A stretch of 64,000 bases of DNA, taken from an uncultured Bdellovibrionales bacterium. GTDB taxonomy: Bacteria; Patescibacteriota; Minisyncoccia; Moranbacterales; UBA1568. Of the stretch, positions 7,537 through 62,455 are shown piece by piece (position 1 is the stretch's first letter; each line of letters starts with the position of its first letter). A model generated the notes under the pieces. The model searched no databases. It was not told the DNA's origin and saw nothing but the letters and a program-made list of their open reading frames with translations. Where the stretch lies: positions 42,942 to 106,941 of the forward strand of contig CAZGXN010000003.1 of the NCBI GenBank assembly GCA_964530135.1, given 5' to 3'. Position numbers and translations under genes: made by a program.

Positions 7537-8547
7537 GTGGTCGAGCCAAGAGTCAATCAGAACAGTCTTATGTCAGAAGAAAAAAACTCTATTTTTGTAA
7601 AGGAGCGGCACAATGGCTGGCGTCTGGATCGTTTTTTACTCGATGCTTGTCGGCCCCTTACGCGTCCAGATGTCCAAACCCTCATTGAGTCAGGTGCGGT
7701 TGCGATTGATGGCAAGGTGATGGTGCGTTCTGGGCTTCGAGTAAAACCAGGGATGACAGTCCATGTGAGAGGCGTCGCTCGGGGGCGTAAGCCAGTGGTG
7801 GAAAAGACAGAGATGCCTCATCCCGTAGTTGTCGCTGAAACTGAGACTTTTCTTGTGCTTTCCAAACCGGCGGGTATTGCTATGCATCCAGCTGGTCATT
7901 CGCAACAATTGACGATTTCTGATTGGATATCCACGACTTATCCACAGATCGTGGGAATTGGTGATGATATAAAACGCCCGGGCATGGTGCACCGTTTGGA
8001 TAAAGACACCTCGGGTCTCATCCTTGTTGCTAAAACGCAGAAGTCGTTTTTGGCTCTAAAGAAGCTTTTTCAAGAGAGAAAGATTGAAAAAACCTATGTG
8101 GCATTGGTCTATGGAAATATCCCTGACCCAAGTGGTCGTATGAATGCACCAATTGGTCGGGTGAAGGGTGAGAAAAAACGGGCGATTCCCGCTGGAAAGC
8201 GTATATTCGCTGGATTACTGCGTGAAGCTGTAACAGAATACATGTTACACACACGCTATACAGGCTATGATTACCTATCTGTTAAGCCAAAAACTGGCAG
8301 AACCCATCAAATCCGAGTCCATTTGTCGGCACTGGGATACCCGATAGTCGGCGATCGGCTGTATCGCTTCAAAGAACACCGCCGTGATCCCCTCAAGCCC
8401 CCCTTTCAACTTCTCCACGCCGCCAATCTTCGTTTTCAGCTAGGAAAAAAGAAGTATTCCTATGCTGCCCCGTTACCCCGTTATTTTTCCGATACTTTGA
8501 AGATGCTTGACGCCGAGGCGGGAAGAGGCTATGATTGGAGCGCTTGA
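7537..8547 (+). CDS. rluD: RluA-family 23S rRNA pseudouridine synthase with an N-terminal S4 domain (RluD-like).
   Basis: S4-like region WRLDRFLLDACRPLTRPDVQTLIESGAVAIDGKV. Catalytic motif HRLDKDTSGLILVAKT. 336 aa. Confidence 0.8.
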   Translation: MVEPRVNQNSLMSEEKNSIFVKERHNGWRLDRFLLDACRPLTRPDVQTLIESGAVAIDGKVMVRSGLRVKPGMTVHVRGVARGRKPVVEKTEMPHPVVVAETETFLVLSKPAGIAMHPAGHSQQLTISDWISTTYPQIVGIGDDIKRPGMVHRLDKDTSGLILVAKTQKSFLALKKLFQERKIEKTYVALVYGNIPDPSGRMNAPIGRVKGEKKRAIPAGKRIFAGLLREAVTEYMLHTRYTGYDYLSVKPKTGRTHQIRVHLSALGYPIVGDRLYRFKEHRRDPLKPPFQLLHAANLRFQLGKKKYSYAAPLPRYFSDTLKMLDAEAGRGYDWSA

Positions 8548-8661
8548 GTAGCCTGCCTGATACGCTTCATGCGAGTCATGTGGGTGGGGCCTTTCTCTGA
8601 AATGGGGTCCCCTTTTTATTACTATAGTAATCTTCCGTCCATTCGGCAGAGTCACACTCCT

Positions 8662-9126
8662 ATGAATCAAAAACTTGTTGCCTTCAATCAGAATCTCCGA
8701 ACAGCGCGTACAGATCTCCCTCAGCTCCAAGCTGGCGATGTCGTGAAAGTGCGCCGAAAAATCAAGGAGGGAGAGAAAATTCGAACCCAGATGTTTCAGG
8801 GTATGGTCATCGCTCTCAAGGGCGGCCAGAGCTCTTCTCAGATGGTAACAGTTCGCAAGGTCTCTTCAGGGATTGGTGTTGAGATTATTTTCCCTCTCCT
8901 CTCCTCTCAGGTGGAGTCAATCGAGCTCGTAAAACGAACCAAGGCTCGGCGTGGTAAACTATACTTTGTCCGTACGAAGTCAGCCAAAGTTATTGGTAAA
9001 AAGCTTAAGGAGGTCCCATTTGAGATCGGGAAAGCGGGTAAGGAAGTAAAAGATGTTGTGAAAGAAGTGAGAGCAGCCGCTCAAGCGAGTGCTGAAGAGG
9101 TGAAGGTTGAAGCGAAGTCAGAGTAG
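8662..9126 (+). CDS. rplS: Ribosomal protein L19 with a Lys/Glu-rich C-terminal extension. The track ORF starts at 8569, but the likely true ATG is at 8662.
   Basis: MNQKLVAFNQNLRTARTDLPQLQAGDVVKVRRKIKEGEKIRTQMFQGMVIALKGG...IELVKRTKARRGKLYF is the canonical L19 fold. A roughly 60-aa K/E/A-rich tail follows. Confidence 0.85.
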   Translation: MNQKLVAFNQNLRTARTDLPQLQAGDVVKVRRKIKEGEKIRTQMFQGMVIALKGGQSSSQMVTVRKVSSGIGVEIIFPLLSSQVESIELVKRTKARRGKLYFVRTKSAKVIGKKLKEVPFEIGKAGKEVKDVVKEVRAAAQASAEEVKVEAKSE

Positions 9127-9244
9127 GGCGTGATTCTTGTGCCAAAATCCCGAGAGACTTTCATTTCTAAGCGAGGATGGACACAAGTTCAGGGAGGTTG
9201 TGAATAATGGAGATCAGTCTTTTGTAGTTTGAACAAAATTAGGG

Positions 9245-9328
9245 GCCCAGGTGGCGGAATTGGTATACGCGCTAGCTTGAGGTGCTAGTTCCCGCAAGGG
9301 ATTGGAGGTTCGAGTCCTCTCTTGGGCA
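9245..9328 (+). tRNA. tRNA-Leu (anticodon GAG), type II with a long variable arm.
   Basis: Acceptor stem GCCCAGG/CTTGGGC. Anticodon arm CTAGC-TTGAGGT-GCTAG. Variable arm TCCCGCAAGGGAT. T-loop TTCGAGT. Confidence 0.8.
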
Positions 9329-9400
9329 CAAAGGAATGCAGCTGGTACATGATTGCCAGCTTTCTTTTTTGTCAGAGTCTCAGTACCATAGGGAAAGCCA

Positions 9401-9474
9401 GGGCAGTTAGCTCAGTTGGTTAGAGCACCTCGTTTACACCGAGGGGGTCAGAGGTTCGAGTCCTCTACTGCCCA
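9401..9474 (+). tRNA. tRNA-Val (anticodon TAC).
   Basis: Acceptor stem GGGCAGT/ACTGCCC. Anticodon arm CCTCG-TTTACAC-CGAGG. T-arm AGAGG-TTCGAGT-CCTCT. Confidence 0.85.
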
Positions 9475-9624
9475 CAGTGAATGTATTCACTATAGAGCAG
9501 GCCAACTGCTTGGCCTGCGTGAGGACGAGAAAGCCAGAGCGATGTCCGAGTTTTCTTTTCAGAGAAAGGCGAAGACCGCGAGGCGGGGTCGAGAGATTTT
9601 CCCGTCAGGGAAAATACTCGTGAC

Positions 9625-9644
9625 CGAGTCCTCTACTGCCCACA
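9625..9644 (+). repeat. 20-bp direct repeat of the tRNA-Val 3' end (CGAGTCCTCTACTGCCCACA), 168 bp downstream of the tRNA copy at 9457-9476. This looks like an att-site-like remnant.
   Basis: The 20-mer is identical at 9457-9476 and 9625-9644. The segment between them has hairpins GTGAAT-GT-ATTCAC, GCAGGCCAA-CTGC-TTGGCCTGC and TTTTCCC-GTCA-GGGAAAA. Confidence 0.6.
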
Positions 9645-9807
9645 CGAAAAAAAGCGTTTCAAAGAGTTGCTTTTTTCGGTAGTTTCGGGATAATGGGAGA
9701 TGTTTCGCTGGAGTCTTTCCGCGCTCAGGCTTCGGATGGACAGCATGTATAGAAACATCAGAAAAAAGAAGAATATTGTTGGGCCCTACGAAGTTTTAAC
9801 GAAGCAG

Positions 9808-9879
9808 GCCGGGGTAGCTCAGTGGTAGAGCGAAGGACTGAAAATCCTTGCGTCGGCAGTTCAATTCTGCCCCCCGGCA
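9808..9879 (+). tRNA. tRNA-Phe (anticodon GAA).
   Basis: Acceptor stem GCCGGGG/CCCCGGC. Anticodon arm AAGGA-CTGAAAA-TCCTT. T-arm GGCAG-TTCAATT-CTGCC. Confidence 0.85.
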
Positions 9880-9981
9880 CACACCAAAACACATCTCAAT
9901 AAAGATGAGATGGAAAAAGTAGAGGTGGTGTGCGTGTGCCCCAGCTGAGTTCCTGTGGTATAAAAATGATGGAGAGAGATC

Positions 9982-10054
9982 GGGTCCGTAGCTCAGCGGT
10001 TAGAGCAGGCGACTCATAATCGCTTGGTCGATGGTTCGATTCCATCCGGACCCA
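9982..10054 (+). tRNA. tRNA-Met (anticodon CAT). Elongator-type, or possibly a tRNA-Ile2 lysidine substrate. It is not initiator-like.
   Basis: Acceptor stem GGGTCCG/CGGACCC. Anticodon arm GGCGA-CTCATAA-TCGCT, with no GGG/CCC anticodon stem. T-arm GATGG-TTCGATT-CCATC. Confidence 0.8.
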
Positions 10055-10076
10055 CAGGCCAGGTAAAATCAGATCC

Positions 10077-10148
10077 GCGGGTATCGTATAGCGGCTATTA
10101 TGTGACCTTGCCAAGGTCAAGATACGGGTTCGACTCCCGTTACCCGCT
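10077..10148 (+). tRNA. tRNA-Gly (anticodon GCC).
   Basis: Acceptor stem GCGGGTA/TACCCGC. Anticodon arm TGACC-TTGCCAA-GGTCA. T-arm ACGGG-TTCGACT-CCCGT. Confidence 0.8.
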
Positions 10149-10517
10149 CAGCTAAAGAAAAAGGATTGGTCTTGCACTGATCTTTTTTTCTTTTGTTTGG
10201 ATTGGGAACGGGAGGCGAACGGGAAAGGGGTCGGGAAAACGGGAGTTTTCCTGTAAGCGGAGAGCAGCGAGTTTACGAAGCGTTGAGAACCGAGGGGTTC
10301 TTAAAGAGCGAAGCGAGTGAGATTCTCCCGTTAACTGCTCCAATAAAAATGAGGCTCATTAGAGTCTTATTTTTTATTACGTCTAAAGTCGTCGAATTAA
10401 TGGTGGACAAGGCCATTGTGAACTGATATGTTTTTTTTTGTACCTTAACAACCCCGAAAGGAACTCTATCGGAGAAAATCCATCTAATTTTGAGTAATAC
10501 TTCTTTGTAAACTCGGA

Positions 10518-11846
10518 TTGGAGATTGAAATGAGAAAGCGTTTGATTTCTTTTGCACTGTTCCTGTCTTTCATTCAATCAGCCTTCGCTTTTGACTGGAA
10601 TTCGTTCACGGCTCCCCCAAGAAATATTCCGTTCACCGTAGGAACTGTGACTTACACATCATTTGTGCAGGTCAGGCATCCTTGGTATGCACTCAACTAT
10701 ATTGTCTATTACCCGGATGGAATAAGCGATGCCCTGAAGCCAGTTGCGGTCGACTATAACCAAGGATATCCCTACCAACACATCTAGTTCCTGCTCAACC
10801 CAACTTCTCAAAGCCAGGCTTATGACAGTGCAGACTACAATCCGAATGTGATTGCTTACTACTGCTCCGGAGTTTCGGCCTGTGAGAATAACAACTGGGG
10901 TGATTCGATAACGCCGACGCAAATCTGGTATCGACAATATACCTGGTTTGACTGGAATTACGCCGGGCCGACTGGTTATAACCTCCAGAATGATCTGGTG
11001 CGAGCAGTTGGCATCGATGTCAAGGTGAACTTTGGCTATGCCTGGGGTGGGCAATTCGGCCTGTCCACGCTTTCAGCGAATGATGTGGTGGTGACAGGCG
11101 CTGCTGCTCCGTCATACCTGAGCTTTCCGCTTGCGGGAGAGACTGCTTACACGGCAGGGGTTTCCTCCGTGATGGATCACTCGATGACGGCTCTATATGC
11201 GGGCGATACCAACAATACGGTCACTGCCTTCAATGGCGAAGCCGGAACTGTTGGTCCGTATGGAAGCAGTACTTGCTACCGAAAGACAGACAGCTCTGTT
11301 TTTCTTGTGGGGACCATAAATTACACGGGTGCTTTTAGTGGCGGAGGTGATACCTATCTCTGCTACAACGGTCACCCGGGTTACGATTACCCCAAGGTGC
11401 AAGGCACGGCAATCCTCGCTCCTGCCGGGGGAACGCTGTGCGTAGCCACTGCAACTCCTACTTCCAAGCCAACACCTTCGGCCGTGTGGAGAAATACCAG
11501 TCAGTGCCCGTTGTCTGTGGCGCCCGGTACCTCCACGGTTAACTGGAGTAGCCACCATGTCTTCTACATCCTCCATGGCTCAATGCTGATGAATGGATCC
11601 ACGGATGAGTACATGACCGTATTCCTCCACAGCAACAACCTGGAATCAACGGTCCTGGCCGGAATCTATGACGATGGCTACAAAGTTGTCACAAGGTTGC
11701 AGGAGATCGCCGCCGTCGGCGATATCGGTGCATCCGGTGCGTACCATATACATCTTGAGGTGTATAAGAAGGTGAGTGGCACCTGGAACCGTGTCGACCC
11801 ATATGGCGATGGTACGAGCAACTTGCTTTGGCCGAAGCCCTACTGA
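10518..11846 (+). pseudogene. Secreted M23-family metallopeptidase (LytM/lysostaphin-like) interrupted by a single in-frame TAG at 10785-10787. It is either a pseudogene or a sequencing error.
   Basis: ORF 10518..10787 has a signal peptide (MRKRLISFALFLSFIQSAFAFDW). ORF 10848..11846 is in the same frame and carries the M23 motifs NGHPGYDYP and HIHLEV. The 20 codons between the two are open. TAG serves as the terminator for pnp, thrS, comM and the yabE-like gene in this window. Confidence 0.6.
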
Positions 11847-11866
11847 AATCTCGTCGGAAACAATTT

Positions 11867-11905
11867 AAAACCCCTTCAAACTTGGAGGGGTCTTTTCTTT
11901 TTTAA
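11867..11905. terminator. Bidirectional rho-independent terminator between the M23 gene (plus) and the 11909..12601 gene (minus).
   Basis: AAAA-CCCCTTCAA-ACT-TTGGAGGGG-TCTTTTCTTTTTT. A 9-bp stem is flanked by an A-run and a T-run. Confidence 0.55.
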
Positions 11906-11908
11906 AAC

Positions 11909-12601
11909 TTATGGAAGAAACTTGAATGTTGAGAGAAACTTTGCTGCCAAGTCTTCGGTTACATCATCATGAATACTCACATGGTATTGTATATTTTCAT
12001 GTTGAAAAATCCCATCTCTTCTCTTGTTCATCCAAACTACTTTTTCACCACTAACAATGGATTCATTTAATTCTTCCCTATCAGGATTGGCAAATCCTAG
12101 ATATGGCTTTTCGGGAGAAAGTGTAATCCAGGTATTTTCAAGCTCTCCTTGTTCTTTAGGGATAGCCTCAATCCAAATACCACTCGACTTCCCACCACTT
12201 ATAGCCTCTATACTTGGAGCAAACATAACTTGATTGATACGCCCTCCAGCTAACAACTCCTTTTTAACATTGTTACAGTCATTCACGACTTGAAATCCTC
12301 GTATATCATCCCCTACAATCATTATCCATTCATCTGGATACTTGACCTGATATCCCCCAGAAATATTTTTACACATTTTTTTCCAATTCGCTGCCGGCTC
12401 AGTGACGACTAGTGGTACTATTTCCGGCTTCTGGATAGGGGATTGTGTCGTGGTCGGTTGTTGTTCTTGCATCACCCTATCTCGTTCAGTCTTTTGTCTC
12501 GCTTTCTCATCAAAATACCGTGCCATTAGAAGCATCCCTCCAAAGAGCATGACGAGACCTAGTCCGATTATCAACACCCCTCTTTGTTTACTGTTTTGCA
12601 T
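11909..12601 (-). CDS. Hypothetical protein with an N-terminal membrane anchor.
   Basis: 230 aa. A transmembrane segment (VLIIGLGLVMLFGGMLLMA) is followed by a Q/P/T-rich linker and a globular domain. No family was recognised. Confidence 0.55.
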   Translation of the reverse strand: MQNSKQRGVLIIGLGLVMLFGGMLLMARYFDEKARQKTERDRVMQEQQPTTTQSPIQKPEIVPLVVTEPAANWKKMCKNISGGYQVKYPDEWIMIVGDDIRGFQVVNDCNNVKKELLAGGRINQVMFAPSIEAISGGKSSGIWIEAIPKEQGELENTWITLSPEKPYLGFANPDREELNESIVSGEKVVWMNKRRDGIFQHENIQYHVSIHDDVTEDLAAKFLSTFKFLP

Positions 12602-12752
12602 AGTTCTCTTTAAAAATCCTGATTCTCCATCGCTTTGATGATACCAGAGATTTCAGCTCCGAGGAACAAAATGATCGTTAAACTTCGGACTGGTTTTAAC
12701 CCTCTATACCAGCTAGCTCAGATTTAGAAAAGAGACTCACAGAGACTTTTTA

Positions 12753-12983
12753 GTGTATTATCGTAAATATATGCAAAGGATCGCCACCAGAATTTTTATT
12801 TACGCTTCCATTACCTTTGGCATTATTGGTATCGCGATGGTACTCTCTGGTCCTTTTGGGCCGAATCAGCCGGACACACCGCTTCAGATTATTTTCATCC
12901 GGCTGCTCATGATTACGGTCTTCATCATTCTCCCATCGTTTGCTCTGAGTGTCGCGGGAAAATATTTGAACGGTAAATTTTAG
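12753..12983 (+). CDS. Small two-TM membrane protein (hypothetical).
   Basis: 76 aa with two hydrophobic helices (IFIYASITFGIIGIAMVL and FIRLLMITVFIILPSFALSVAG). Confidence 0.35.
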   Translation: MYYRKYMQRIATRIFIYASITFGIIGIAMVLSGPFGPNQPDTPLQIIFIRLLMITVFIILPSFALSVAGKYLNGKF

Positions 12984-13143
12984 TTCCAAACCACCAACTT
13001 GTCTCAGGACTTTTTTCTTCTTTGAGTAGCAAAAATAAAAATCTTCCATAATCTCCCTGGGCTCGTACTCAGAAAGATTTAGCGTGCCGATATCTTCGAT
13101 CCTGAGAGTTCTCGGTATATACTAGGAAGAGCAGATATCTTTT

Positions 13144-17157: not shown

Positions 17158-18948
17158 ATGAATACGCATATTACTTCAATTGAAAACATACGACATTCTT
17201 TGGCGCATCTGCTCGCGGCCGCAGTTCTTGAATATGATCCAAAAGCCAAACTCGGCATTGGTCCAACAATTGAGAATGGTTTTTATTATGATATCCAATT
17301 TTCTCAGTCTTTTTCTGAGGAAACACTCCCGAAACTCGAAGAGCGGATGCGAACACTCGTGCAACAAGACCTCCCCTATACTCGAAGAGCAGTATCCTCC
17401 ACAGTTGCACGTGAGCACTTCTTCGACCAGCCATTCAAATTGGAACTCATTAACGAACTTGAGGCCAAAGCTGAGCCCATCACGCTGTATGCGACTGGTG
17501 ACATCTTTGTCGATTTGTGTCGGGGTGGGCATGTCGAGCGTACGGGCGAGATAGTGTCAGATGCATTTACACTCACACATATCGCCGGAGCATACTGGAG
17601 AGGGAGTGAAAAAAATCCGATGCTGACCCGCATATATGGCCTGGCATTTGCCTCCAAAGAAGAGCTGGACACCTATCGCGCGCAGCAAGAGGCAGCAAGA
17701 CAGCGAGATCATCGTCTCCTCAATGAACAGCAGGATTTTTTCCTGATATCGGAAGAAGTGGGCAAGGGACTCCCCCTCTATCTCCCCAATGGAGCATATA
17801 TCCGCAAGAAGCTAGAGGATTTTATGTACGAAAAGGAGTCGGCTCATGGATATCGCTATGTGTACACGCCAGTGCTGACACATCGGCGGCTATACGAGCA
17901 GTCCGGACATCTGGCACACTATCGGGCCGATATGTATAGCCCGATTGATATCGAGGGCGAAGAGTACTATCTGCGTCCGATGAATTGTCCACACCATCAT
18001 CAAATCTTTCGGCATCGTCCCGTGAGCTATCGGGATCTGCCTCTCCGTTTGGCTGAAGCCGGACTCGTTCATCGTTTTGAGCGGTCGGGAGTATTGACCG
18101 GTCTTATTCGGGCGCGCTGCTTTACTCAAAATGATGCACACATTTATTGTGCAAAAGCGGATCTCAAACACGAGATTTTGGGAGTACTTGCCCTTTTTCG
18201 GGAAGTATACGATGAAGTCTTTCATATTCGAGACTACTGGTTTCGTCTCTCACTTCCTGATTTTGAAAATACCGAGAAATTTGGTGATATCGAAGATCAA
18301 TCAATGTGGGAAGAAGCGACGACTGTGGCTCGGGGTGCACTTCAAGATTTCGGCGCGCGATATGTTGAGGGTGGTGGCGAGGCAGCATTTTACGGTCCAA
18401 AGATTGATGTGCAAATACGCAATGTGAATGGTAAAGAAGATACGATTGCTACGATTCAGATTGATTTTTATTCGGCGCGGCGTTTTAACCTGAGTTTCAT
18501 CAATGCGCACGGTGAAAAGGAATCACCAGTTATTATTCATCGGGCTATCATGGGTTCGTTTGAACGCTTTTTTGCATTCCTCATCGAACAATATGCTGGT
18601 GCGTTTCCGGTCTGGCTCTCGCCAGTGCAGGCGATCATTCTCCCGGTGAGTGAGAAACAAGCCGAATATGCAAAGGTCATAGAGGAAAAATTGCGTGCTG
18701 GTGGCATTCAGGTGCGGATGGAGAACTCTGGTGATACGCTTGGGAAACGAGTGCGAAAGGCGAAAGCCTCAAAGACACCTTATTTTCTCGTACTTGGAGA
18801 ACGCGAAGCAGAGTCCCAGACCATCGCGGTCGAAAGTCGTGATGAAGGAAAGCTTGGTCCGATGACCGCTGCTGATTTTCTTACTCGTCTTCGGTCCGAA
18901 ATTGATACCCGAAAGAATACGGGACTATCTGAGGAAAAGACAAGTTAG
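17158..18948 (+). CDS. thrS: Threonyl-tRNA synthetase.
   Basis: 596 aa. Class II aaRS motifs YRADMYSPIDIEG and LRPMNCPHHHQIF, with an anticodon-binding C-terminus. Confidence 0.9.
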   Translation: MNTHITSIENIRHSLAHLLAAAVLEYDPKAKLGIGPTIENGFYYDIQFSQSFSEETLPKLEERMRTLVQQDLPYTRRAVSSTVAREHFFDQPFKLELINELEAKAEPITLYATGDIFVDLCRGGHVERTGEIVSDAFTLTHIAGAYWRGSEKNPMLTRIYGLAFASKEELDTYRAQQEAARQRDHRLLNEQQDFFLISEEVGKGLPLYLPNGAYIRKKLEDFMYEKESAHGYRYVYTPVLTHRRLYEQSGHLAHYRADMYSPIDIEGEEYYLRPMNCPHHHQIFRHRPVSYRDLPLRLAEAGLVHRFERSGVLTGLIRARCFTQNDAHIYCAKADLKHEILGVLALFREVYDEVFHIRDYWFRLSLPDFENTEKFGDIEDQSMWEEATTVARGALQDFGARYVEGGGEAAFYGPKIDVQIRNVNGKEDTIATIQIDFYSARRFNLSFINAHGEKESPVIIHRAIMGSFERFFAFLIEQYAGAFPVWLSPVQAIILPVSEKQAEYAKVIEEKLRAGGIQVRMENSGDTLGKRVRKAKASKTPYFLVLGEREAESQTIAVESRDEGKLGPMTAADFLTRLRSEIDTRKNTGLSEEKTS

Positions 18949-19179
18949 CCATTTCGGAGAAGCTTTTTGTTTGAATATAGAGAGTGGGTCGAGCATTAAG
19001 TGTTCGGTGGTTGGATCTGCGATCCGACAGGTAAATTTTTATGTGCTCGAGAGGACAATCCTCTCTCGTTTTCCATTCATAGCAACTCGTGTGATGTGAA
19101 CATATATTTTTTCCTATGGTAAAAAATATGTTTGCACGGTACGGTTTGCTACAATAAAGAAAATAAACAAGGCATTTTT

Positions 19180-20286
19180 ATGGGTATTGGCGCATTTCTT
19201 ATTGTCATCCAATCGATTATTACTTTTGTCCATTGGGTCGTTTGGCGTGTGCTCGATACTCACTGGCCGCTGACGGGACCGGCACACACCATTGCTTTTG
19301 CCTTTTTGATCGCGTTCTCATTTTCATTTCTCACTTTCAATATCTTGACGCGTCTCGTGCCTGGAAATATAACGCGCACACTCTATTTTTATGCGGCCAT
19401 GTGGTTGGGTACAGTGCACTTTCTTTTTCTGGCTGCAGTACTTCTTTCGGGCACCTCATTGATTGCAAATATCTTTGACATACCACTTTCACCCTGGATA
19501 GCCCCCCTCTTTTTTATGGGGGCATTGGGGATGAATGGCTTTGCTTTGTGGAGCGGATTTCAGATCCATCCGAGGCATTATGCAGTTGCTCTCCCCAACC
19601 TCCCTGAGTATTGGGTCGGAAAAAAGATCGCCTTTTTTGCTGATACACATTTTGGCAATGTACACCGCGAGCAGACAGCAGTTGATATCGTTAGACTCTT
19701 GGAAAAAGAAAATCCCGCATTGATTCTGATGGGCGGTGATTTTTTCGATGGGCCACCGATTGAGGCTGAGCGCGTTACCATCCCCTTTCGGTCGCTCACG
19801 GCACGCATCCCCACATATTTTGTTTCAGGGAATCATGAAGAATACGGTGATACTATTGGATTTTTGCGCGCGCTCCAATCAGCTGGCTTCAGAGTGATTA
19901 ATGATCGGCGAGTTGAGGAGCAGGGACTACAGATTGTTGGGCTCGATTTCATGACGACTCGAACACCGGAGGCTACGGCAATGGTGATGCTCCATCTCAT
20001 GGTGAATGATGCCCTTCCAACGATCGTGTTGAAGCATATCCCTCGCAATATCACACAGCTTGTCGATGGAGGTGCGGATCTGACACTCCATGGTCATACA
20101 CATGAAGGTCAGATGTGGCCTTTTAGCTGGATAACATGGCTCATCTATCAAGGGTATGACTTTGGCTTGAAGCCATATGGTGATGCGCTGGTATATACCA
20201 CGAGTGGATCGGGAAGTTGGGGCCCGCCACAACGCCTTGGTACCGCGGCTGAGATTGCCCTTTTTACACTTACTCGGAAAAAGTAA
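19180..20286 (+). CDS. Membrane-anchored calcineurin-like metallophosphoesterase. The track ORF starts at 19132; the internal ATG at 19180 is likelier.
   Basis: N-terminal TM helices are followed by GGDFFDG, GNHE and HGHTH metallophosphatase motifs. Confidence 0.7.
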   Translation: MGIGAFLIVIQSIITFVHWVVWRVLDTHWPLTGPAHTIAFAFLIAFSFSFLTFNILTRLVPGNITRTLYFYAAMWLGTVHFLFLAAVLLSGTSLIANIFDIPLSPWIAPLFFMGALGMNGFALWSGFQIHPRHYAVALPNLPEYWVGKKIAFFADTHFGNVHREQTAVDIVRLLEKENPALILMGGDFFDGPPIEAERVTIPFRSLTARIPTYFVSGNHEEYGDTIGFLRALQSAGFRVINDRRVEEQGLQIVGLDFMTTRTPEATAMVMLHLMVNDALPTIVLKHIPRNITQLVDGGADLTLHGHTHEGQMWPFSWITWLIYQGYDFGLKPYGDALVYTTSGSGSWGPPQRLGTAAEIALFTLTRKK

Positions 20287-20437
20287 TCTCAGAAGCGTCA
20301 ACGAAAGACTTTAAGTTACTTGATCGTTCCATGTGCATGTTGTCTCTCTGTGCATTGTGAGACCCCATGCTTACCTATACCTCACATATTTTCTGTGAAT
20401 GGGGAATTGAGCTTAGAATGAGTAGGGTGGGAACGGG

Positions 20438-21034
20438 CTATACCCTACCAGTTTTTATCTTTTTAATAAGCTGTGGAATTTTTTTGAAATCCTCGATGAG
20501 TGTCTGGCGCATACTGCCATTGTAGAGTGCGGCAGCCGGATGATAGAGTGCAAAAAAAACTTGTGGACCCATGTCAGGGAAAGTCCGACGAAAGGCCTGG
20601 CCATGTACTTCGGAAATTTTTTTCTCGGGAATGAAGTGTTCCATGGCGTAGCGGCCGAGAGTAACGATAACGATCGGCTGGATGATCTGGATCTGTTCAT
20701 GGAGCCAGGGCATGCAGGCTTCAATTTCGGCAGGTAGGGGGTCGCGATTGTTGGGTGGTCGATACTTTACGACATTGGTAATGTAAACATTTTCGCGCGT
20801 GAGGTGAATGCTTGCGAGCATTTCAGTGAGGAATTTTCCAGCGGCTCCGACAAATGGAAGTCCCTGGAGATCCTCGTTTTTTCCAGGGGCTTCACCGATA
20901 AACATAATTTCTGCTTCGGCACTGCCGTCACCAGGGACAGCCTGCGTCGCTGTTTCACGCAGTGTGCAGGTACACTCAAGCCGCATACGGGCATTGAGAA
21001 TCTTCAATCGTTTTGCTTTGAGAGTATCCTCCAT
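20438..21034 (-). CDS. Family 4 uracil-DNA glycosylase.
   Basis: 198 aa. FIGEAPGKNEDLQGLPFVGAAGKFL is the family-4 UDG motif A. A 4Fe-4S Cys pattern is present and HPAAALY is motif B. Confidence 0.8.
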   Translation of the reverse strand: MEDTLKAKRLKILNARMRLECTCTLRETATQAVPGDGSAEAEIMFIGEAPGKNEDLQGLPFVGAAGKFLTEMLASIHLTRENVYITNVVKYRPPNNRDPLPAEIEACMPWLHEQIQIIQPIVIVTLGRYAMEHFIPEKKISEVHGQAFRRTFPDMGPQVFFALYHPAAALYNGSMRQTLIEDFKKIPQLIKKIKTGRV

Positions 21035-21052
21035 AATGTTTGAAGGAGTGGT

Positions 21053-22012
21053 CTATGCTATATGCCAGCCGTCAGCTGACTCGATGATTTTTCCGTTGAC
21101 CTCAAATCCACTTGCGAGTTTGTGCCCTCCCCCGCCGAGCATATGGGCGATAGCCGAAACATCGACACCGTGATGTTCTGAGGCGCGAAGGCTCCCCCGA
21201 ACGGTTTTTTCATCACGTTCAGAAAGGACGAGAGCAAATTTTGCTTCCGGAACTGTCGAAAGGATAGAGGCAACTTGATAGATGTCATCGGGTGTCGCTT
21301 CGCACTCGTCGATATCAGATCGAGTAACGGCCGTAACGAGAAGCCCAGATTGTGGAACAAACTTTGCCTTTTCAAACGCCTTCCCCCAAAGCTTCATGGC
21401 AGAAATATTTTTATTTGTAAAAATTGTGTTTGATATTTTTGTCAGTGGCGCACCGAGTTTCATCAGGCGTGAAGCGATATCCATCACCTGGGGTGAAACC
21501 GATGAATGCTGGAAATTTCCCGTGTCAAAAAGTATTCCAGTGAGCAGAGCAGTGGCCATGTCCCTCGTTATATGCGCCTGGGTGTGTATGAAAAAAAGAT
21601 ATACTAATTCGCTTGATGAAGAATATTTTGGATCAATAATCACGATATCGGCAGACAGATTGATATCAGGATGATGATCTATGAGGGCGATAACCTGATG
21701 TTCTGCAAAGCGATCACGGAAAAGATGGAATCCGCGATCAACCGAATCGACAGCGATGATGGCATCATAGTGTGTGAGATCGAGCTGATCAGGATGTAAA
21801 AATTCAGCATGAAAGAGGACATTCAAACTTTCAGGAAACGGATCATAGCAAGCGATCACCACCTCTTTCCCCTGTTCTTCAAGAAAGTACTTCAGCGCAA
21901 GGTTTGCCCCGACCGTATCGGGATCAGGGCGTTTATGTGCGACAAGCAAGATGGATGTTGCTTGACTGATAACAAAATGAAGGGTTTTAAACTCTTTTCC
22001 GAAATAACGCAT
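21053..22012 (-). CDS. DHH/DHHA1 phosphoesterase (NrnA-like oligoribonuclease/pAp phosphatase). The track ORF extends to 22069 and overlaps rbfA; the internal start MRYFGKE is likelier.
   Basis: DHH-family motifs (VAHKRPDPDTVGANLAL, IDHH) and the DHHA1 GGGGH motif. Confidence 0.7.
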   Translation of the reverse strand: MRYFGKEFKTLHFVISQATSILLVAHKRPDPDTVGANLALKYFLEEQGKEVVIACYDPFPESLNVLFHAEFLHPDQLDLTHYDAIIAVDSVDRGFHLFRDRFAEHQVIALIDHHPDINLSADIVIIDPKYSSSSELVYLFFIHTQAHITRDMATALLTGILFDTGNFQHSSVSPQVMDIASRLMKLGAPLTKISNTIFTNKNISAMKLWGKAFEKAKFVPQSGLLVTAVTRSDIDECEATPDDIYQVASILSTVPEAKFALVLSERDEKTVRGSLRASEHHGVDVSAIAHMLGGGGHKLASGFEVNGKIIESADGWHIA

Positions 22013-22022
22013 ACAGTTTCGT

Positions 22023-22367
22023 TTATTTCCGTTCGTCTTTAATCGTGCGAAGTAAATGCTCAACCTCATCTGCTTTTTCCTCAGTTGTATCGAGCTCGAA
22101 GAGAATAGTTGGAAGTGGACGAGTAGCTAGTTTCCGATGAAAAATCCGTTGAATAGTCCGGCGTTCATGCTCGAGAGTTTTCATTCCATAATTTCGGTCT
22201 TCAATTGGAAGAATACTCAGAAAGACACGTGTTGTACGTAGGTTGCGTGCAGTTTCAACCCGAGAGAGTGTGATAATCACCCCTTGTTTAAGAGAAATCT
22301 CTCGCGTTAAAATCTCTCCAAGAATATCTCGGATAAGATCATTGAGTTGTGTAATTCGGTCATGCAT
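22023..22367 (-). CDS. rbfA: Ribosome-binding factor A.
   Basis: 114 aa. The KH-like pattern ITLSRVETARNLRTTRVFLSILP with DTTEEKADEVEHLL is characteristic of RbfA. Confidence 0.6.
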   Translation of the reverse strand: MHDRITQLNDLIRDILGEILTREISLKQGVIITLSRVETARNLRTTRVFLSILPIEDRNYGMKTLEHERRTIQRIFHRKLATRPLPTILFELDTTEEKADEVEHLLRTIKDERK

Positions 22368-22439
22368 AGTGCCCCCACCAGGAATCGAACCCAGATCTCT
22401 CCCTTAGGACGGGATAGCTCTATCCATTGAGCTACAGGG
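22368..22439 (-). tRNA. Probable tRNA-Arg (anticodon CCT), with several G-U pairs or mismatches in its stems.
   Basis: The reverse complement reads GCCCCTG-TA-GCTC-AATGGATA-GAGC-T-ATCCC-GTCCTAA-GGGAG-...CTGGG-TTCGATT-CCTGG-TGGGGGC-A. The anticodon loop has T33 and A37 flanking CCT. Confidence 0.5.
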
Positions 22440-22685
22440 GCGATTGGTTACTGTAGAGGAAAACCATCACTCTGGCAAGACATTGTACCGACGCCTGTAT
22501 CCGTATTGTAACAGAGGATATCTGTGGATAACTGGAGGATAAGTCGTAAAAACTCATCCAATAGGTACCTAAATGGCCCATATAAACAAAATGGAGTGTC
22601 GAGGCTATTCGAGTACCATAAAATCACAACAAGGCTCTACGGTGATATAGTCGTAGAAAAATAAGCAAAGGATCCCTATGAAGTG

Positions 22686-22758
22686 TGGACCATACCGGAT
22701 TCGAACCGGTCACCCCTTCCATGCCATGGAAGTGCTCTACCAAATGAGCTAATGGCCC
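22686..22758 (-). tRNA. tRNA-Ala (anticodon GGC) with the G3:U70 identity pair.
   Basis: The reverse complement reads GGGCCAT TAGCTCATTTGGTAGAGCA CTTCC-ATGGCAT-GGAAG ...ACCGG-TTCGAAT-CCGGT ATGGTCC A. Confidence 0.8.
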
Positions 22759-22813
22759 AGAGGAAAAAAAAGTATAACACCTTATAATCATAGGGATATT
22801 CCCTATTTCGTCA

Positions 22814-24205
22814 ATGCTGGCAGGATGGCGTGCATGCGCTATACTGTATGACTGTATGAAAATAATTCGTAAATATCTTGAGGGTGTAGAGGCGGTGTTG
22901 GTCTATGCCTATATTTGGCAGATACCGTTTTCGTGGCGCTTTATTCTTGATCCAAACCGCAGCCAGAGAAGTGCTGGATTTAACGAATACATGGATATTT
23001 CCCTATACATAGGAGAGATTTTGCTTATTATTGCACTTCTTATACACATATTACGATACAATATAGAAAAGAAGTCAATATATAAAAATAGGTTTAAAGT
23101 ACTTATTTCTAAATTGTTCCACGTGGAACATCGAAAAAAAATATTTTTTATTGGAATAATAACCCTTGTATTACTGAATGTATTTTTCTCAATAGATTGT
23201 CCACTGACACTTATGTCGATATTCCATTGGATAAACTTTGCTTTTTTTGTACTTCTTATTAAAGGACTATATGTTTCACGTGGAACAATAATTATAAGCT
23301 CAATATTTTTTATATTATCAATTAGTGTCTTTTTACAAACCTTTGTTTCTTTAAATCAGGTTATTTATGGATCATCAATAGGTTTTAAGATGCTAAATGA
23401 ATCAATTCTTTCATTGCATGAAATAAATATTGCTAAATCAAATATTTTTTCGCACCTTATTCTCAGAGGATATGGCACATTTCCTCATCCAAACATATTG
23501 GCCGCCTATGCAGCATTTACTATCATATATGGAATTTTATTCAAAAAAATTATGTTCCACGTGGAACATTTATATCCAGTAACATTATTTTTCTCTACCT
23601 TTCTTATAATTCTCACTCAGTCAAAACTAACATTTATATTTATTACAATCATGTATCTCTATTTAGTGTTAAAAAACTATAAAAGAAGAAAATTGTTCCA
23701 CGTGGAACATCTGTATTTACTAGTAATAACGGTACTATTTCTTATTTTCTTTAGTTTTCTCTTTAAACAGGATATTTACAATTCGTTTAAAACAAGAGTG
23801 GATCAGTATAGAATCCAGTTAAGTCATCTAAATGTAACACTTTTTGGATCTGGTTTAGGAACATATCGTTTATCATACGATACCCAATCTGCTGATTGGT
23901 GGAACATGGAACCAATTCACTTCACTCCAATAATTGCATTATCAGAGATTGGGATAGCTTTGCTACTTTTCGGATCTTATGTGCTCTATAAATATATTAA
24001 AATTGTTCCACGTGGAACATGGATTGGCATTTCTTTACCGATGTTTTTTCTGGTGTTTATATTGGTCTTTGACCATTATGCCTGGGATATATACCAGGGA
24101 AATTTTCTTTTACTCTCTATATCACTTCTCATAGCCTATAGAGTAATAATTGACATAGATTATAAAAAGTGTTATAGTATTGATAACTTTAACAATCGAG
24201 ACTAG
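22814..24205 (+). CDS. Polytopic membrane protein (10 or more TM; O-antigen ligase/Wzy-like by topology only) in an AT-rich island. Its ORF is maintained across five embedded palindromic repeats.
   Basis: A 463-aa ORF is open in roughly 30% GC DNA, which argues for a real gene. It is hydrophobic throughout. The repeat-encoded peptides are LFHVEH, MFHVEH, LFHVEH, YVSRGT and IVPRGT. Confidence 0.6.
   Translation: MLAGWRACAILYDCMKIIRKYLEGVEAVLVYAYIWQIPFSWRFILDPNRSQRSAGFNEYMDISLYIGEILLIIALLIHILRYNIEKKSIYKNRFKVLISKLFHVEHRKKIFFIGIITLVLLNVFFSIDCPLTLMSIFHWINFAFFVLLIKGLYVSRGTIIISSIFFILSISVFLQTFVSLNQVIYGSSIGFKMLNESILSLHEINIAKSNIFSHLILRGYGTFPHPNILAAYAAFTIIYGILFKKIMFHVEHLYPVTLFFSTFLIILTQSKLTFIFITIMYLYLVLKNYKRRKLFHVEHLYLLVITVLFLIFFSFLFKQDIYNSFKTRVDQYRIQLSHLNVTLFGSGLGTYRLSYDTQSADWWNMEPIHFTPIIALSEIGIALLLFGSYVLYKYIKIVPRGTWIGISLPMFFLVFILVFDHYAWDIYQGNFLLLSISLLIAYRVIIDIDYKKCYSIDNFNNRD
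23115..23130. repeat. Palindromic repeat copy 1: TGTTCCACGTGGAACA, a perfect 16-bp palindrome with a CACGTG core, frame A.
   Basis: Read at line 23101 as aaaTTGTTCCACGTGGAACATcg. Confidence 0.9.
23272..23287. repeat. Palindromic repeat copy 2 (one substitution): TGTTTCACGTGGAACA, frame B.
   Basis: Read as atgtttcacgtggaacaat. It matches the consensus at 15 of 16 positions. Confidence 0.8.
23553..23568. repeat. Palindromic repeat copy 3: TGTTCCACGTGGAACA. Extended by its flanks, ATGTTCCACGTGGAACAT is an 18-bp perfect palindrome. Frame A.
   Basis: Read as ttATGTTCCACGTGGAACATtt. Confidence 0.9.
23694..23709. repeat. Palindromic repeat copy 4: TGTTCCACGTGGAACA, frame A.
   Basis: Read as aaaattgttccacgtggaacatctg. 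Confidence 0.9.
24004..24019. repeat. Palindromic repeat copy 5: TGTTCCACGTGGAACA, frame B. A half-site GTGGAACA lies at 23899-23906.
   Basis: Read as aaaattgttccacgtggaacatgg. The half copy is ggtGGAACAtgg. Confidence 0.9.
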
Positions 24206-24829
24206 TAATATTACTGGTTGTTATTTAAAACATGAGCTTTCTCTGTTTTGAACCTTTTTTAGAAATAATTTGAGAAAATTTTGTTTTTAAGGTATTTTAG
24301 GAAATTTCTAGCTTAATAAGCTACGTTTGAAGCAAAGTAATTTGTGAAATAGCTTGTTTGAGGGATAATTTATTCTTAAATAAAGGTGGAAAATTGTGAA
24401 GTGTGTACATTTGACTTCGGACTATATTGTTATATCAGACCTTTTTTGGGTAACTGGAGGGCTCAAGAAAGCCGTGTATAATCGTTTTTTAATCCCTTGG
24501 GTCGGTTTGGTGTGTAGAAGTTGAGTGGTAGTTGGTAAGTCTGGTGAGTTATCAGAGGAGTTGCTAAGTGTTGTAGCAATATATCCACACAAAACCCAGA
24601 TAAAAAATTTATTTCAACCAAATAGACAAGTCAAATCTATTTTTTATTGCCATTTTTAGGAGGGACATAAAAAGGGGTAATGTTTTGAAGTGTACGCCTG
24701 AATTATGTATTAGATGGCCGATTCTGATTATATGAACAGATATCGGATAAAAGGCTTTGGTGGACTCATATTGTTTTAAGGATGAGGCGACTGTTGCAAA
24801 AAAAATATTGTGATATACTTTCTTTATAT

Positions 24830-25825
24830 ATGGGAGTAATACACACAAAAAATAATTTGCGTTGGAGCATTTTTGTTTTTTCATTTCTCTGTCTTTTCAG
24901 TTCGGCGTTGTATGTTGCCGCTGATGAAACATCGACGACAGATACGATCGTTTTTGATGATGCTGATTCGGATAACCTCTCAAGTGAGGAAGAAAAAATT
25001 TATGGCACGGATCCGAGTGTGGCAGATACGGACGGTGATGGATATAGTGATGGGGTTGAAATTGAGGGAGGATTTGATCCATTGAAACCAGCGCCTGGGG
25101 ATCGAATGATACCGGACGAGGTGAAAACTGAAACGAGTGGAGAGGCTGTTGACGCAGCGTCGGTGAATCTGACAGAGGTGGCAGCGACCGGACTCGCAGG
25201 GTTTGTTTCGGAAAAAATGGATACAGATAAGGGATCGGAAGTAACATCCGATGACCTCAATTCCGTTATGGAAAATATCATGGCGGTGAGTGGAGAGGAA
25301 GTAGTGTTGCCGGAAATTGATACTGCTGCAATTAAGGTAAAGAAAATCTCAGCGAAGCTTTCGGAAGAAGAACGAAAAGAGCAGAATCGCCAAGATGTGA
25401 TTGAATATCTCACGCTGACGAGTTATATACTCATATCAAATGCGCCGGTGCAAATCCGAGATACACAAGCACTCAAAAGTTTTACAATGGATGCAGGGAG
25501 TAAGATGGTAGCGGGATTGCTTTCAGGAAATTATGATTACCTTGATACGATTGAAGAACGAGGCAAGAAGGCGCTCGATGAAGTGAGTAATGTAGAGGTG
25601 CCTGAGAGCATGATTGATACTCATGTGAAGACTATTAAAATGCTGACTTTTGCTTCGAATCTAAAACAATCAATTAAGGTAACCACTCGTCCAGATGATC
25701 CTCTTGGGCAGATGTATATGTTTTCAAAAGCGCAGGGCTTTCTCATGTCGCTCGGTGGCTTTATGCAAGAAACTCAAGGGAAGTTATCTGATATTGGTAT
25801 TGAGAACATCCCACTGGATATTTAA
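24830..25825 (+). CDS. Secreted protein with a thrombospondin type-3-like calcium-binding Asp repeat. The track ORF starts at 24782; the ATG at 24830 gives a signal peptide.
   Basis: MGVIHTKNNLRWSIFVFSFLCLFSSALYVAADE is followed by DTDGDGYSDGVEIEGGFDPL. The rest is acidic and low in complexity. Confidence 0.6.
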   Translation: MGVIHTKNNLRWSIFVFSFLCLFSSALYVAADETSTTDTIVFDDADSDNLSSEEEKIYGTDPSVADTDGDGYSDGVEIEGGFDPLKPAPGDRMIPDEVKTETSGEAVDAASVNLTEVAATGLAGFVSEKMDTDKGSEVTSDDLNSVMENIMAVSGEEVVLPEIDTAAIKVKKISAKLSEEERKEQNRQDVIEYLTLTSYILISNAPVQIRDTQALKSFTMDAGSKMVAGLLSGNYDYLDTIEERGKKALDEVSNVEVPESMIDTHVKTIKMLTFASNLKQSIKVTTRPDDPLGQMYMFSKAQGFLMSLGGFMQETQGKLSDIGIENIPLDI

Positions 25826-51693: not shown

Positions 51694-52653
51694 CTATTTC
51701 TTCTTCCGCTTGCCGTGAAAGGACTGATGAACTTCTTTCAGGCGTTCATTGGTAACATGGGTATAGATCTGTGTCGTGGTGATAGAGGCATGACCGAGCA
51801 TCGCCTGGACGGATCGGATATCTGCACCATTCATGAGGAGGTCAGTGGCAAAACTGTGCCGGAGCGTATGGGGATGGACATCTTTTACAATGCCGGCTTT
51901 TTTCGCATAGTGTTTCACGAGTCGAGCGATCGTTCGGGGAGTCAGTCGGAGGGTTTCGCGCGCAGCATTCCTTTTGTTGACCAAGCCTCGCTTGGGGTGG
52001 GCAACGAATAGAGCGGGGTCGATATCGGATCGGTGCTCGAGGTAGTGTGCGATGGCCGTTTTAGCGCTTTTGGAGAGAAACACGATGCGCAGTTTTGAAC
52101 CCTTGCCCCGGACGCTAAATTCATCCTTGGCGAGATTCACCTGATCGCGATTGAGGCCTGTGAGCTCTGAGACGCGGAGACCAGCTGAAAAGAGAAGCTC
52201 GAGCAGTGCTCGGTCGCGCCGACTTCGGAGAGTGTCTCCGGTCGGAGCAGCGAGGAGTCGTTCAATTTCATCAGACTCAAGGAATTCAACCTGGCGCTCA
52301 GGTATTCGGCCAATTTCAATCTTTTCAGCGGGCAGGGTTTCGATATCGTGTTTTGCGAGATACTTGAGAAAAGTCCGAAGAACGATAATATGATGGGCCT
52401 GCGTGCTCTTTTTGAGTGTGCTACCAGGCTTGGTCTCACGCCGATTGAGGGCGAGTCGGTACTGGCGGATCTGCTCAGCGGTGATATCGCTGGGGTGGTG
52501 GATATCGCCCCATGTAAAGAAGGCCTGTAGTGTTCGTTGATAGCTATCAATAGTACGATGGGAGCGATTCATCTCGATTTCGAGGTGGTCGAAAAACGCC
52601 TGGGCGAGTCGTTCAATTTCAGTTTTTTGTTTGGAAGGTGAGTGGTCAGACAT
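51694..52653 (-). CDS. xerD: Tyrosine recombinase of the XerC/XerD family.
   Basis: 319 aa. An N-terminal SAM-like domain. Catalytic residues in GLRVSEL, HTLRHSFAT and LGHASITTTQIYTHV. Confidence 0.85.
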   Translation of the reverse strand: MSDHSPSKQKTEIERLAQAFFDHLEIEMNRSHRTIDSYQRTLQAFFTWGDIHHPSDITAEQIRQYRLALNRRETKPGSTLKKSTQAHHIIVLRTFLKYLAKHDIETLPAEKIEIGRIPERQVEFLESDEIERLLAAPTGDTLRSRRDRALLELLFSAGLRVSELTGLNRDQVNLAKDEFSVRGKGSKLRIVFLSKSAKTAIAHYLEHRSDIDPALFVAHPKRGLVNKRNAARETLRLTPRTIARLVKHYAKKAGIVKDVHPHTLRHSFATDLLMNGADIRSVQAMLGHASITTTQIYTHVTNERLKEVHQSFHGKRKKK

Positions 52654-52773
52654 ACAGTATACGACCCGTATTGTAGCATGAGCCGAGTGTTCATGGATAA
52701 CACAAGTATTCTATAAAAGGCTTTATATAAAGCAAAAAAGTAAAATTAATAACCAAAAGACATTGACCAATGC

Positions 52774-54117: not shown

Positions 54118-54322
54118 CTGATTTGTGGGAAAGGGTGGAGCGAAGACGGTTACAAGAATGAGTGGGGAGGATGGTGAGGCAAGAAAAGCAGCGGGTTTCA
54201 ATGCCTCTCCTTGAGTTTCAGCGCTTGATCCCCGCCACTCTCTTCTTTGTGTGTCCCAATCCTGTGGGCTTGTGGTATACTATTTTTGTATCCGATGTCG
54301 TCGTCTGTATCGCTGCGTACTT

Positions 54323-56338: not shown

Positions 56339-56358
56339 TCCTTTAACATTGAATTGGT

Positions 56359-57510: not shown

Positions 57511-57603
57511 CATTTTCTTCAACATGATATACTGCACAGTGTAGGTTGGATTTTTGTTTGTCGGAAAGATGAAACGAGGAAATAGTTTGAAACAAAAACC
57601 GTT

Positions 57604-57999
57604 ATGATGTTCAGCGTCCCCCAGTTTATTGATGTTGAAGACAAAATTGCTGGCCCACTCACTTGGCGTCAGTTGTTGTGGATGATCGGGATGGGGATTC
57701 TTCTCCTCGTCATATACAATACTATCGGTACAGCTGGTTTTTTGATTGTGGCGGTCCCGATTGTCTTACTGTTTTGTGCCCTAGCCTTTTATCGGCCACA
57801 GGGTCAACCGCTCATTGTGTTTCTCTTCCATGGATTTACCTATTTCTTCCGGCCGAAAATTGCTGTCTGGGAGCGCCCAATAGCCCGCCGCCAGGCAGCT
57901 CCTGAGGTTGAAGCTGCTCCCGTGAAAGCAGCGGCGAAAGCCAAACAGCTTTCACCAGAAGCTCTCCGCGATTTGGCTCGGCTCATGGACACCCACTAG
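57604..57999 (+). CDS. PrgI/VirB3-like small two-TM T4SS protein.
   Basis: 131 aa. MMFSVPQFIDVEDKIAGPLTWRQLLWM is followed by two TM helices and a basic tail. It sits immediately upstream of VirB4, as VirB3/PrgI does. Confidence 0.5.
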   Translation: MMFSVPQFIDVEDKIAGPLTWRQLLWMIGMGILLLVIYNTIGTAGFLIVAVPIVLLFCALAFYRPQGQPLIVFLFHGFTYFFRPKIAVWERPIARRQAAPEVEAAPVKAAAKAKQLSPEALRDLARLMDTH

Positions 58000-58008
58000 T
58001 TTTCATGT

Positions 58009-58683: not shown

Positions 58684-58687
58684 ACTT

Positions 58688-60919: not shown

Positions 60920-60924
60920 ACGCT

Positions 60925-62453: not shown

Positions 62454-62455
62454 TT

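Follow-up and report, generated by a model that had tools for sequence, protein, structure and literature searches.

A tRNA-adjacent AT-rich region in a Patescibacteria genome is probably an origin-proximal parS centromere carried in frame by a membrane-protein gene

What kind of element makes the GC content fall steeply beside a tRNA gene? The question is raised by positions 22759-24829 of a 64,000-nt stretch of DNA (hereinafter the window; contig CAZGXN010000003.1 of assembly GCA_964530135.1, positions 42,942 to 106,941), which has a GC content of 31.4% (0.314) compared with 48.9% (0.489) in the remaining window and lies 8.4 s.d. below background 2071-bp windows (mean 0.490, s.d. 0.021, n = 28). 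The original prediction had put the drop at roughly 30% versus 48%, in good agreement with these values. It had also noticed a palindrome-bearing membrane-protein gene in the low-GC region, which we recover as a 463-aa open reading frame (ORF) at 22814-24205, and had taken the composition and the position beside tRNA-Ala as signs of horizontal acquisition. Judged from its sequence, the region is instead most likely a conserved, origin-proximal parS centromere of the chromosome, carried in frame within a gene for a WaaL-fold membrane protein. The features on which this reading rests are as follows.

22833..25028, no strand: valley core, 200-bp GC below 0.40 throughout (sliding GC)
22814..24205, + strand: host gene for a polytopic membrane protein of 463 aa, fold of the WaaL / O-antigen-ligase (Wzy_C) type (ORF, profile comparison)
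23115..23130, no strand: putative parS site 1, TGTTCCACGTGGAACA, encoding FHVEH, residues ~101-106, turn between helices 90-102 and 107-124
23272..23287, no strand: putative parS site 2, TGTTTCACGTGGAACA, encoding VSRGT, residues ~153-158, turn between helices 129-152 and 158-185
23553..23568, no strand: putative parS site 3, TGTTCCACGTGGAACA, encoding FHVEH, residues ~247-252, loop between helices 226-242 and 253-268
23694..23709, no strand: putative parS site 4, TGTTCCACGTGGAACA, encoding FHVEH, residues ~294-299, turn between helices 271-291 and 297-316
24004..24019, no strand: putative parS site 5, TGTTCCACGTGGAACA, encoding VPRGT, residues ~397-402, turn between helices 371-396 and 402-419

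The palindrome is 16 bp long and occurs five times within 905 bp of the host ORF, four times as TGTTCCACGTGGAACA and once as TGTTTCACGTGGAACA. When up to three mismatches to TGTTCCACGTGGAACA are allowed, five matches are found where 0.23 are expected, a number reached in none of 100 shuffles, and no other site with at most one mismatch is present in the window or across ~91 kb of the contig (30,490-121,723). By sequence, the palindrome is a canonical chromosomal parS (ParB-binding) site: both versions fit the chromosomal parS consensus TGTTNCACGTGAAACA (review PMC7022226) at all 14 specified positions, and TGTTCCACGTGGAACA is the mutationally validated parS2/parS3 of P. aeruginosa (PMC4368675). 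Read in three frames, the palindrome encodes FHVEH, VPRGT and CSTWN; TGTTCCACGTGGAACA contains no stop codon in any of the six frames, and TGTTTCACGTGAAACA creates TGA in one frame. Occurrence of FHVE[HQ], V[PS]R[GE]T or CSTWN in predicted proteins thus offers a quick signature of embedded parS sites.

The sites are constrained as DNA. All five occupy the same codon positions, in the same frames, in 14 orthologs. Among the 74 sites of these orthologs, positions 2-4, 7-10 and 13-14 are invariant and variation is confined to position 5 (C/T), position 12 (G/A) and the two outermost bases, positions 5 and 12 being the degenerate (N) positions of the parS consensus. Codon choice in the same orthologs differs sharply between the inside and the outside of the sites: His is encoded by CAC in 43 of 43 cases inside versus 37 of 125 outside, Arg by CGT in 27 of 27 versus 26 of 164, and Phe by TTC in 42 of 44 versus 129 of 505. 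The host protein is among the fastest-evolving of the neighborhood, with 32-48% identity across eight relatives (most neighboring proteins retain 60-94% in the six closest), and one hypothetical protein alone diverges equally fast. In a larger set of 45 loci, 288 of 292 sites lie within a single long ORF, defined from stop to stop, and four lie outside. In the frame where an A at position 12 gives TGA, the base is G in 41 of 41 sites, compared with A in 54 of 246 sites read in the other frames (Fisher p = 1.4e-4). This frame-specific avoidance of TGA, together with the placement inside ORFs, indicates that sites and reading frame have been preserved jointly, and the data show that constraint lies on the DNA sites beyond coding need while the host ORF stays open. 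Sixty-five of 288 sites are asymmetric at positions 5 and 12, including 34 with a C/A combination; half-sites thus vary largely independently, which fits a site bound by a protein dimer and disfavors a hairpin.

The host protein belongs to the WaaL-type polytopic fold, as its family profile matches the WaaL structure 7TPG. Pfam PF04932 (Wzy_C) scores the window protein at 22.8 bits, below the gathering cut-off of 31.7, and is matched at E ≤ 1e-3 by 19 of 32 aligned family members, the best at 6.4e-19. Sequence identity to WaaL / Wzy_C proteins (PDB 7TPG/7TPJ; PF04932) is only ~10% and, unlike WaaL, the host protein is fast-evolving and encoded by a gene that doubles as a predicted centromere carrier. 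Translation may actually begin with the ATG at ~22856, since the alignment with orthologs sets in at about residue 15. All five site-encoded peptides sit in short turns between transmembrane helices, and helix parity and Lys/Arg-rich flanks put these turns on the cytoplasmic side, opposite the conserved loops. Fourteen residues are invariant across 65 host-family sequences, and the invariant R218, Y220, G221, H225, P226, N227, R328, H369, D420 and H421 lie on the face opposite the sites. To our knowledge, Candidate Phyla Radiation (CPR) bacteria, the group to which this genome belongs, have no lipopolysaccharide.

The array is close to the replication origin. The window is part of a 145-kb metagenome contig, of which ~91 kb was read, and the named homologs of its proteins are from Candidatus Moraniibacteriota (CPR/Patescibacteria). 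To the left, jag-yidC-rnpA-rpmH diverges from dnaA-dnaN-dciA, and the dnaA start lies 8.1 kb from window position 1. The site cluster is ~31 kb from dnaA, or ~2.6% of a 1.2-Mb genome if the size matches that of a relative's complete genome, and ~26 kb from dnaA in a distant relative (L007). GC skew is positive over the entire window with no sign change, which fits an origin on the left side, and the host gene is co-oriented with replication. The origin neighborhood spans 18226-21389 of record L090 and 8019-13126 of record L092; the rpmH-dnaA spacer of 216 bp holds one DnaA-box-like 9-mer at up to one mismatch, and the exact oriC is not obvious.

The low GC content that first drew attention to the locus forms a single deep valley in sliding-window GC and codon composition, the deepest and by far the longest low-GC run of the window. 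The valley was correctly placed by the original prediction between tRNA-Ala and about 24830, but its onset is not exactly at the tRNA: the left edge is graded, with GC falling from 0.44 to 0.38 to 0.30 across 22650-23250. In related genomes, the averaged GC profile has a floor of 0.32-0.34 over the central ~1.5 kb, down from ~0.51, and shoulders of 0.41-0.47 that reach out to ~2-3 kb, and the valley is centered on the site cluster in eight of the eight genomes profiled. The GC content of the host gene is 0.27-0.38 in close relatives compared with 0.47-0.54 in the flanks, and its GC content at third codon positions (GC3) in the window is 0.28 compared with 0.52-0.59 for equally hydrophobic membrane proteins. 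GC3 is depressed in neighboring genes as well (RbfA, 22023-22367, 0.30; TSP3 protein, 24830-25825, 0.39; DHH, 0.43) and is back at ~0.5 within 2-3 kb of the site cluster, as in a graded valley. The body of the host gene has a negative GC skew, down to -0.33. The only other run of the window with 200-bp GC below 0.40 (11797-12425) is short and shallow; it overlaps a minus-strand ORF (11909-12601; GC 0.40, GC3 0.35) that encodes a hypothetical protein of 230 aa without a Pfam match.

A scan of the host family separates the effect of the sites from that of the protein. The scan was seeded on the peptide [GAS]YG[TL]F[PL]HPN, which is not parS-encoded, and found 527 homolog-bearing genomes; site statistics are from the best 80 loci, whose labels come from many CPR lineages but are unverified, some of them (e.g. 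"uncultured Bdellovibrionales") conflicting with CPR-type synteny. In homologs without sites (n = 40), gene GC follows flank GC with a slope of 1.06 (r 0.88) and a mean gene-minus-flank difference of -0.020, whereas in homologs with sites (n = 40) the slope is 0.09 (r 0.13) and the mean difference -0.086 (Mann-Whitney p = 1e-7 over 80 loci that are phylogenetically non-independent). Low GC therefore goes with site hosting, not with the protein family. Since site-less homologs follow genome GC, we rejected an origin of the low GC in the amino-acid composition of membrane proteins; the hydrophobic proteins of the window have the ordinary GC3 given above, and the ordinary Wzy_C paralogs of the same genome, which serve as an internal control, differ from the host gene in having a normal GC content of 0.51-0.52 and no palindromes.

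On the centromere reading, the five canonical parS sites in the short cytoplasmic turns of the WaaL-fold gene would act as an array. ParB dimers, encoded elsewhere in the genome, would recognize each 16-bp palindrome, load there as cytidine triphosphate (CTP)-gated sliding clamps and spread over the neighboring few kb, and the resulting partition complex would mark and organize the origin region for segregation and/or the loading of SMC (structural maintenance of chromosomes) complexes. We infer this binding, spreading and segregation role at the array from ParABS biology.

Several points weigh against the centromere reading. Neither a ParB nor a ParA gene turned up in the window (Pfam search of 38 ORFs), in the ~91 kb of contig, which was walked both ways and past dnaA, or in ~90 related flanks (GERRxRA regular expression and phmmer). 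The oriC position is deduced from dnaA synteny and GC skew alone. The AT-rich valley, in our view the most interesting of the unexplained features, finds no account in the ParB model, and we know of no precedent for such a valley in parS regions. Nor was a parB found in the dnaA region of the distant relative L007, and no relatives of the lineage were found among ParB-bearing metagenome loci. The ParB query had a positive control: a metagenome scan that started from the sites, with 120 listed loci chosen solely for a dense palindrome pair, contained parB in 43 of the 120, which ties the palindrome to ParB in general. ParB-parS is used without ParA by some bacteria. The ParB family (PF02195/K03497) occurs in 1717 CPR versus 947 other genomes and is "equally distributed" (Méheust et al. 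2019, PMC6744442, Supplementary Data 1), a count that, as a further point on the negative side, covers CPR as a whole and not this lineage. Because the family, on these published counts, is present in most CPR genomes (PMC6744442), a ParB is likely encoded elsewhere in this genome. A ParA-like family is depleted in CPR (617 CPR versus 1160 non-CPR genomes; PMC6744442), and the two counts together hint at ParB-parS operating without a ParA motor in many CPR bacteria. Apart from this protein-family table (PMC6744442), full-text searches for parS or ParB in CPR returned nothing relevant.

With no ParB gene found nearby, the palindromes might serve as operators for some other DNA-binding protein, for instance a repressor acting to silence or autoregulate the gene, or as targets of a restriction-modification system; all of them lie in one transcription unit, and their CACGTG core is a common protein-binding motif. 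We consider this improbable, since all 14 specified parS positions are matched and variation falls on the known degenerate positions only, while the array is origin-proximal and kept over a wide clade. Operators, moreover, normally sit at promoters and not across 900 bp of coding sequence, and the targets of restriction-modification systems usually tend toward avoidance, not toward clustering and conservation.

The distribution of sites across the CPR bears on whether they could be selfish or mobile palindromic repeats, of the repetitive extragenic palindromic (REP) or Rickettsia palindromic element type, that resemble parS without any ParB role. Among the best 80 loci, sites are present in 40 and number five or more in 28, and none are found in homologs labeled Peregrinibacteria, Peribacteria or Gracilibacteria. 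Distant orthologs carry 12-15 near-perfect in-frame sites, and in record L008 (10680-11485) three different loops each contain a ~37-aa triple-site cassette (FHVE..CSTWN..VPRGT; three frames; spacing 41 and 50 bp), a pattern reminiscent of duplication or spread that suggests that arrays may expand by duplication or gene conversion between existing sites. That all copies are tolerated in frame also speaks for mobile repeats. Dispersal would then be expected, yet the sites are confined to one gene, with none elsewhere in 91 kb; the best 80 loci hold 248 sites in 177 kb of gene regions (1.40/kb) compared with 11 in 1070 kb of flanks (0.010/kb in 1.07 Mb). The five positions are orthologous across genomes, the sequence equals experimentally validated parS, the same palindrome pairs adjoin parB in unrelated bacteria, and the location is origin-proximal, all of which make a mobile origin a shade less credible even than the operator alternative. 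Rickettsia palindromic elements are reportedly inserted in frame in genes. The present sites resemble them in that in-frame palindromes are tolerated, loop peptides are added and copy number expands; those elements, however, are ~100-150 bp long, scattered through many genes and without a known DNA-binding partner, whereas the palindromes here are 16 bp long, reside in one origin-proximal gene and equal parS.

Acquisition of a glycan or O-antigen-ligase island integrated beside tRNA-Ala, as the original prediction had it, has very little left to recommend it. The two tRNA genes concerned are the following.

22685..22758, - strand: tRNA-Ala(GGC), conserved upstream neighbor and not an integration target (tRNA scan, synteny)
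22369..22441, - strand: tRNA-Arg(CCT), conserved upstream neighbor (tRNA scan, synteny)

The locus does have a strongly atypical GC content, with a GC3 of 0.28, an adjoining tRNA gene and a fast-evolving protein. Comparison of relatives for presence or absence of the locus nonetheless contradicts horizontal acquisition, as every relative examined, down to 32% protein identity, keeps it in full synteny with the same tRNAs and the same GC valley. The order 3D-metallophosphatase-UDG (uracil-DNA glycosylase)-DHH-RbfA-tRNA-Arg-tRNA-Ala-host-TSP3 protein-...-FtsH-...-GyrA is kept in all of them, including a complete 1.217-Mb genome, the missing metallophosphatase of L007 being the sole exception, and tRNA-Arg(CCT) and tRNA-Ala(GGC) stand directly upstream of the host gene in L003, L004, L005, L007, L016, L018 and the rearranged L008. 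No integrase was found within ~27 kb, mobility genes are likewise missing nearby, and no att-like repeat flanks the region, which abuts the 5' end of the tRNA gene. A real glycan cluster lies elsewhere, and its Wzy_C paralogs have ordinary GC content and no sites. Overall, the original interpretation is supported in part. The locus thus shares with tRNA-associated genomic islands an atypical composition beside a tRNA gene and differs from them in lacking presence/absence polymorphism, integrase and att repeats, in adjoining the wrong tRNA end and in having an ancestral anomaly. Because the composition anomaly is common to orthologs and tracks the sites, it is not evidence of recent transfer; composition-based island finders, and the logic that a tRNA-adjacent, low-GC region must stem from horizontal gene transfer, would misclassify the locus.

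A role of the palindrome in RNA (hairpin, attenuator or terminator) or as a repeated functional peptide is just as improbable: three of the sites were flagged as weak terminator-like hairpins by a consensus scan, and FHVEH and VPRGT recur at conserved protein positions, but the possible stems are ~6 bp, the palindrome is identical on both strands, positions 5 and 12 show no compensatory, pairing-preserving changes among the 288 sites, synonymous positions are frozen, and a function of the peptide is excluded because three frames give three unrelated peptides.

The centromere reading leaves the AT-richness to be accounted for. One possibility is that selection favors particular physical properties in centromere DNA; another is that AT-biased mutation acts together with repair or recombination that is altered under the ParB complex. 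A bolder proposal, which we put forward tentatively and think rather unlikely, is that transertion, in which transcription and translation of the host gene are coupled to insertion of its product into the membrane, tethers the ParB-parS complex and the origin region to the membrane, and that the ParB complex creates an AT-rich centromere with a composition uncoupled from that of the genome through repair/recombination or selection on DNA mechanics. If true, transertion would provide a minimal anchoring and segregation device for ultra-small, largely ParA-poor bacteria. A GC valley uncoupled from genome GC lends itself naturally to testing whether local composition is shaped by a DNA-bound complex.

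As a putative centromere, the array compares closely with the chromosomal ParB-parS systems of B. subtilis (Spo0J/parS), P. aeruginosa (parS1-4) and M. xanthus (22-site cluster), which use the same 16-bp palindrome (PMC7022226). Like these, it comprises multiple clustered copies, is origin-proximal and is conserved across related genomes. Unlike known chromosomal parS, the entire array lies in frame in one gene, at orthologous codon positions that encode cytoplasmic turns, related lineages carry 12-15 in-frame copies, and an AT-rich valley is conserved. A further difference is that parB and parA are both missing from at least 40 kb to each side, whereas elsewhere parS often adjoins parB (the 43 of 120 listed control loci). 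One B. subtilis parS site is said to lie inside the spo0J coding sequence. As in that case, a parS within a translated ORF can still function; known intragenic parS are single sites in assorted genes, compared with five to 15 in one gene over a phylum-scale clade here. Clusters of parS as such are familiar, but an array that keeps to one conserved host gene, doubles as codons for cytoplasmic turns, grows to as many as 15 in-frame sites and lies in a GC valley uncoupled from genome GC appears to be undescribed; literature searches found no description of a conserved in-gene parS array with a GC valley. Up to 15 protein-binding DNA sites doubling as membrane-protein loop codons would be an unusual form of dual coding, and since chromosome segregation in CPR/Patescibacteria, which account for a very large and mostly uncultivated share of bacterial diversity, is essentially unstudied, the locus offers a sequence-defined candidate centromere for a broad clade.

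Arrays are also found outside a host ORF. In L047 (Paceibacterota), eight sites at 11864-12335 lie in ORF-free DNA after tRNA-Val, ~560 bp downstream of a site-less Wzy-like homolog, and include the half-site variants TGTTTGAC and TGTTTTAC; here the array stays linked to the host-gene neighborhood even outside the ORF. None of the 120 metagenome loci listed by the site-first scan has a Wzy-like host, and their dense arrays are mostly intergenic. Further AT-rich metagenome contigs with dense intergenic parS arrays are L156 (1044-2027), L104 (1337-1570), L148 (649-1022) and L151 (108-270). The 15 sites of L156 lie directly upstream of dnaA, on a contig that also encodes a TraC-like protein 43% identical to that of the window, and the arrays of L104, L148 and L151 adjoin gyrA. 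The varied settings suggest that small-genome lineages place arrays at differing origin-proximal spots.

Downstream of the host gene, the valley includes one more feature.

24206..24829, no strand: AT-rich non-coding tail, lineage-specific spacer inside the valley, 624 nt, next called gene at 24830

Its length without a called gene agrees with the unusually long, ~620-bp non-coding tail described before. Conservation in relatives is limited to the last ~40 nt (24787-24829), next to where the downstream gene starts (blastn), and their equivalent spacer measures 95-392 nt; in a second sample of the same strain the tail is 100% identical. The structured RNAs or degraded genes that the tail had been thought possibly to hold were not found: there is no Rfam match at the gathering threshold or at E ≤ 1, the fold z-score is -1.13, conservation is lacking, and tblastx against all fetched loci detected no gene remnant. 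An oriC was likewise rejected, as the tail has one DnaA-box-like 9-mer and no sign change of GC skew and lies ~31 kb from dnaA; DnaA-box matches are not enriched in the window either (17 versus 12.7 expected). The tail thus appears to be an AT-rich spacer of the valley that is specific to this lineage. From 24150-24178, a strong promoter-like match (TTGACA-17-TATAGT; 11 of 12 positions, a consensus match only) points into it, and GC skew is strongly positive (+0.31 to +0.37) over 24150-24750.

Two other gene clusters are of note. The glycan-synthesis cluster (L090, 12559-18214), between the origin and the window, contains the two Wzy_C paralogs, two GT2 glycosyltransferases and a Polysacc_synt flippase. 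At the right end of the window, 51694-64000 and on into L214, a cluster resembling a type IV secretion system (T4SS) or conjugation system encodes a XerC/D-type tyrosine recombinase, a LysM-CHAP hydrolase, PrgI-like and TraC-like proteins, a VirB4/TraG-type ATPase and large hypothetical proteins, and a T4SS-pilin-like gene lies at 708-2096. A preprint (10.1101/2025.01.22.634366) reports that a T4SS of Patescibacteria is homologous to the conjugation machinery of monoderms.

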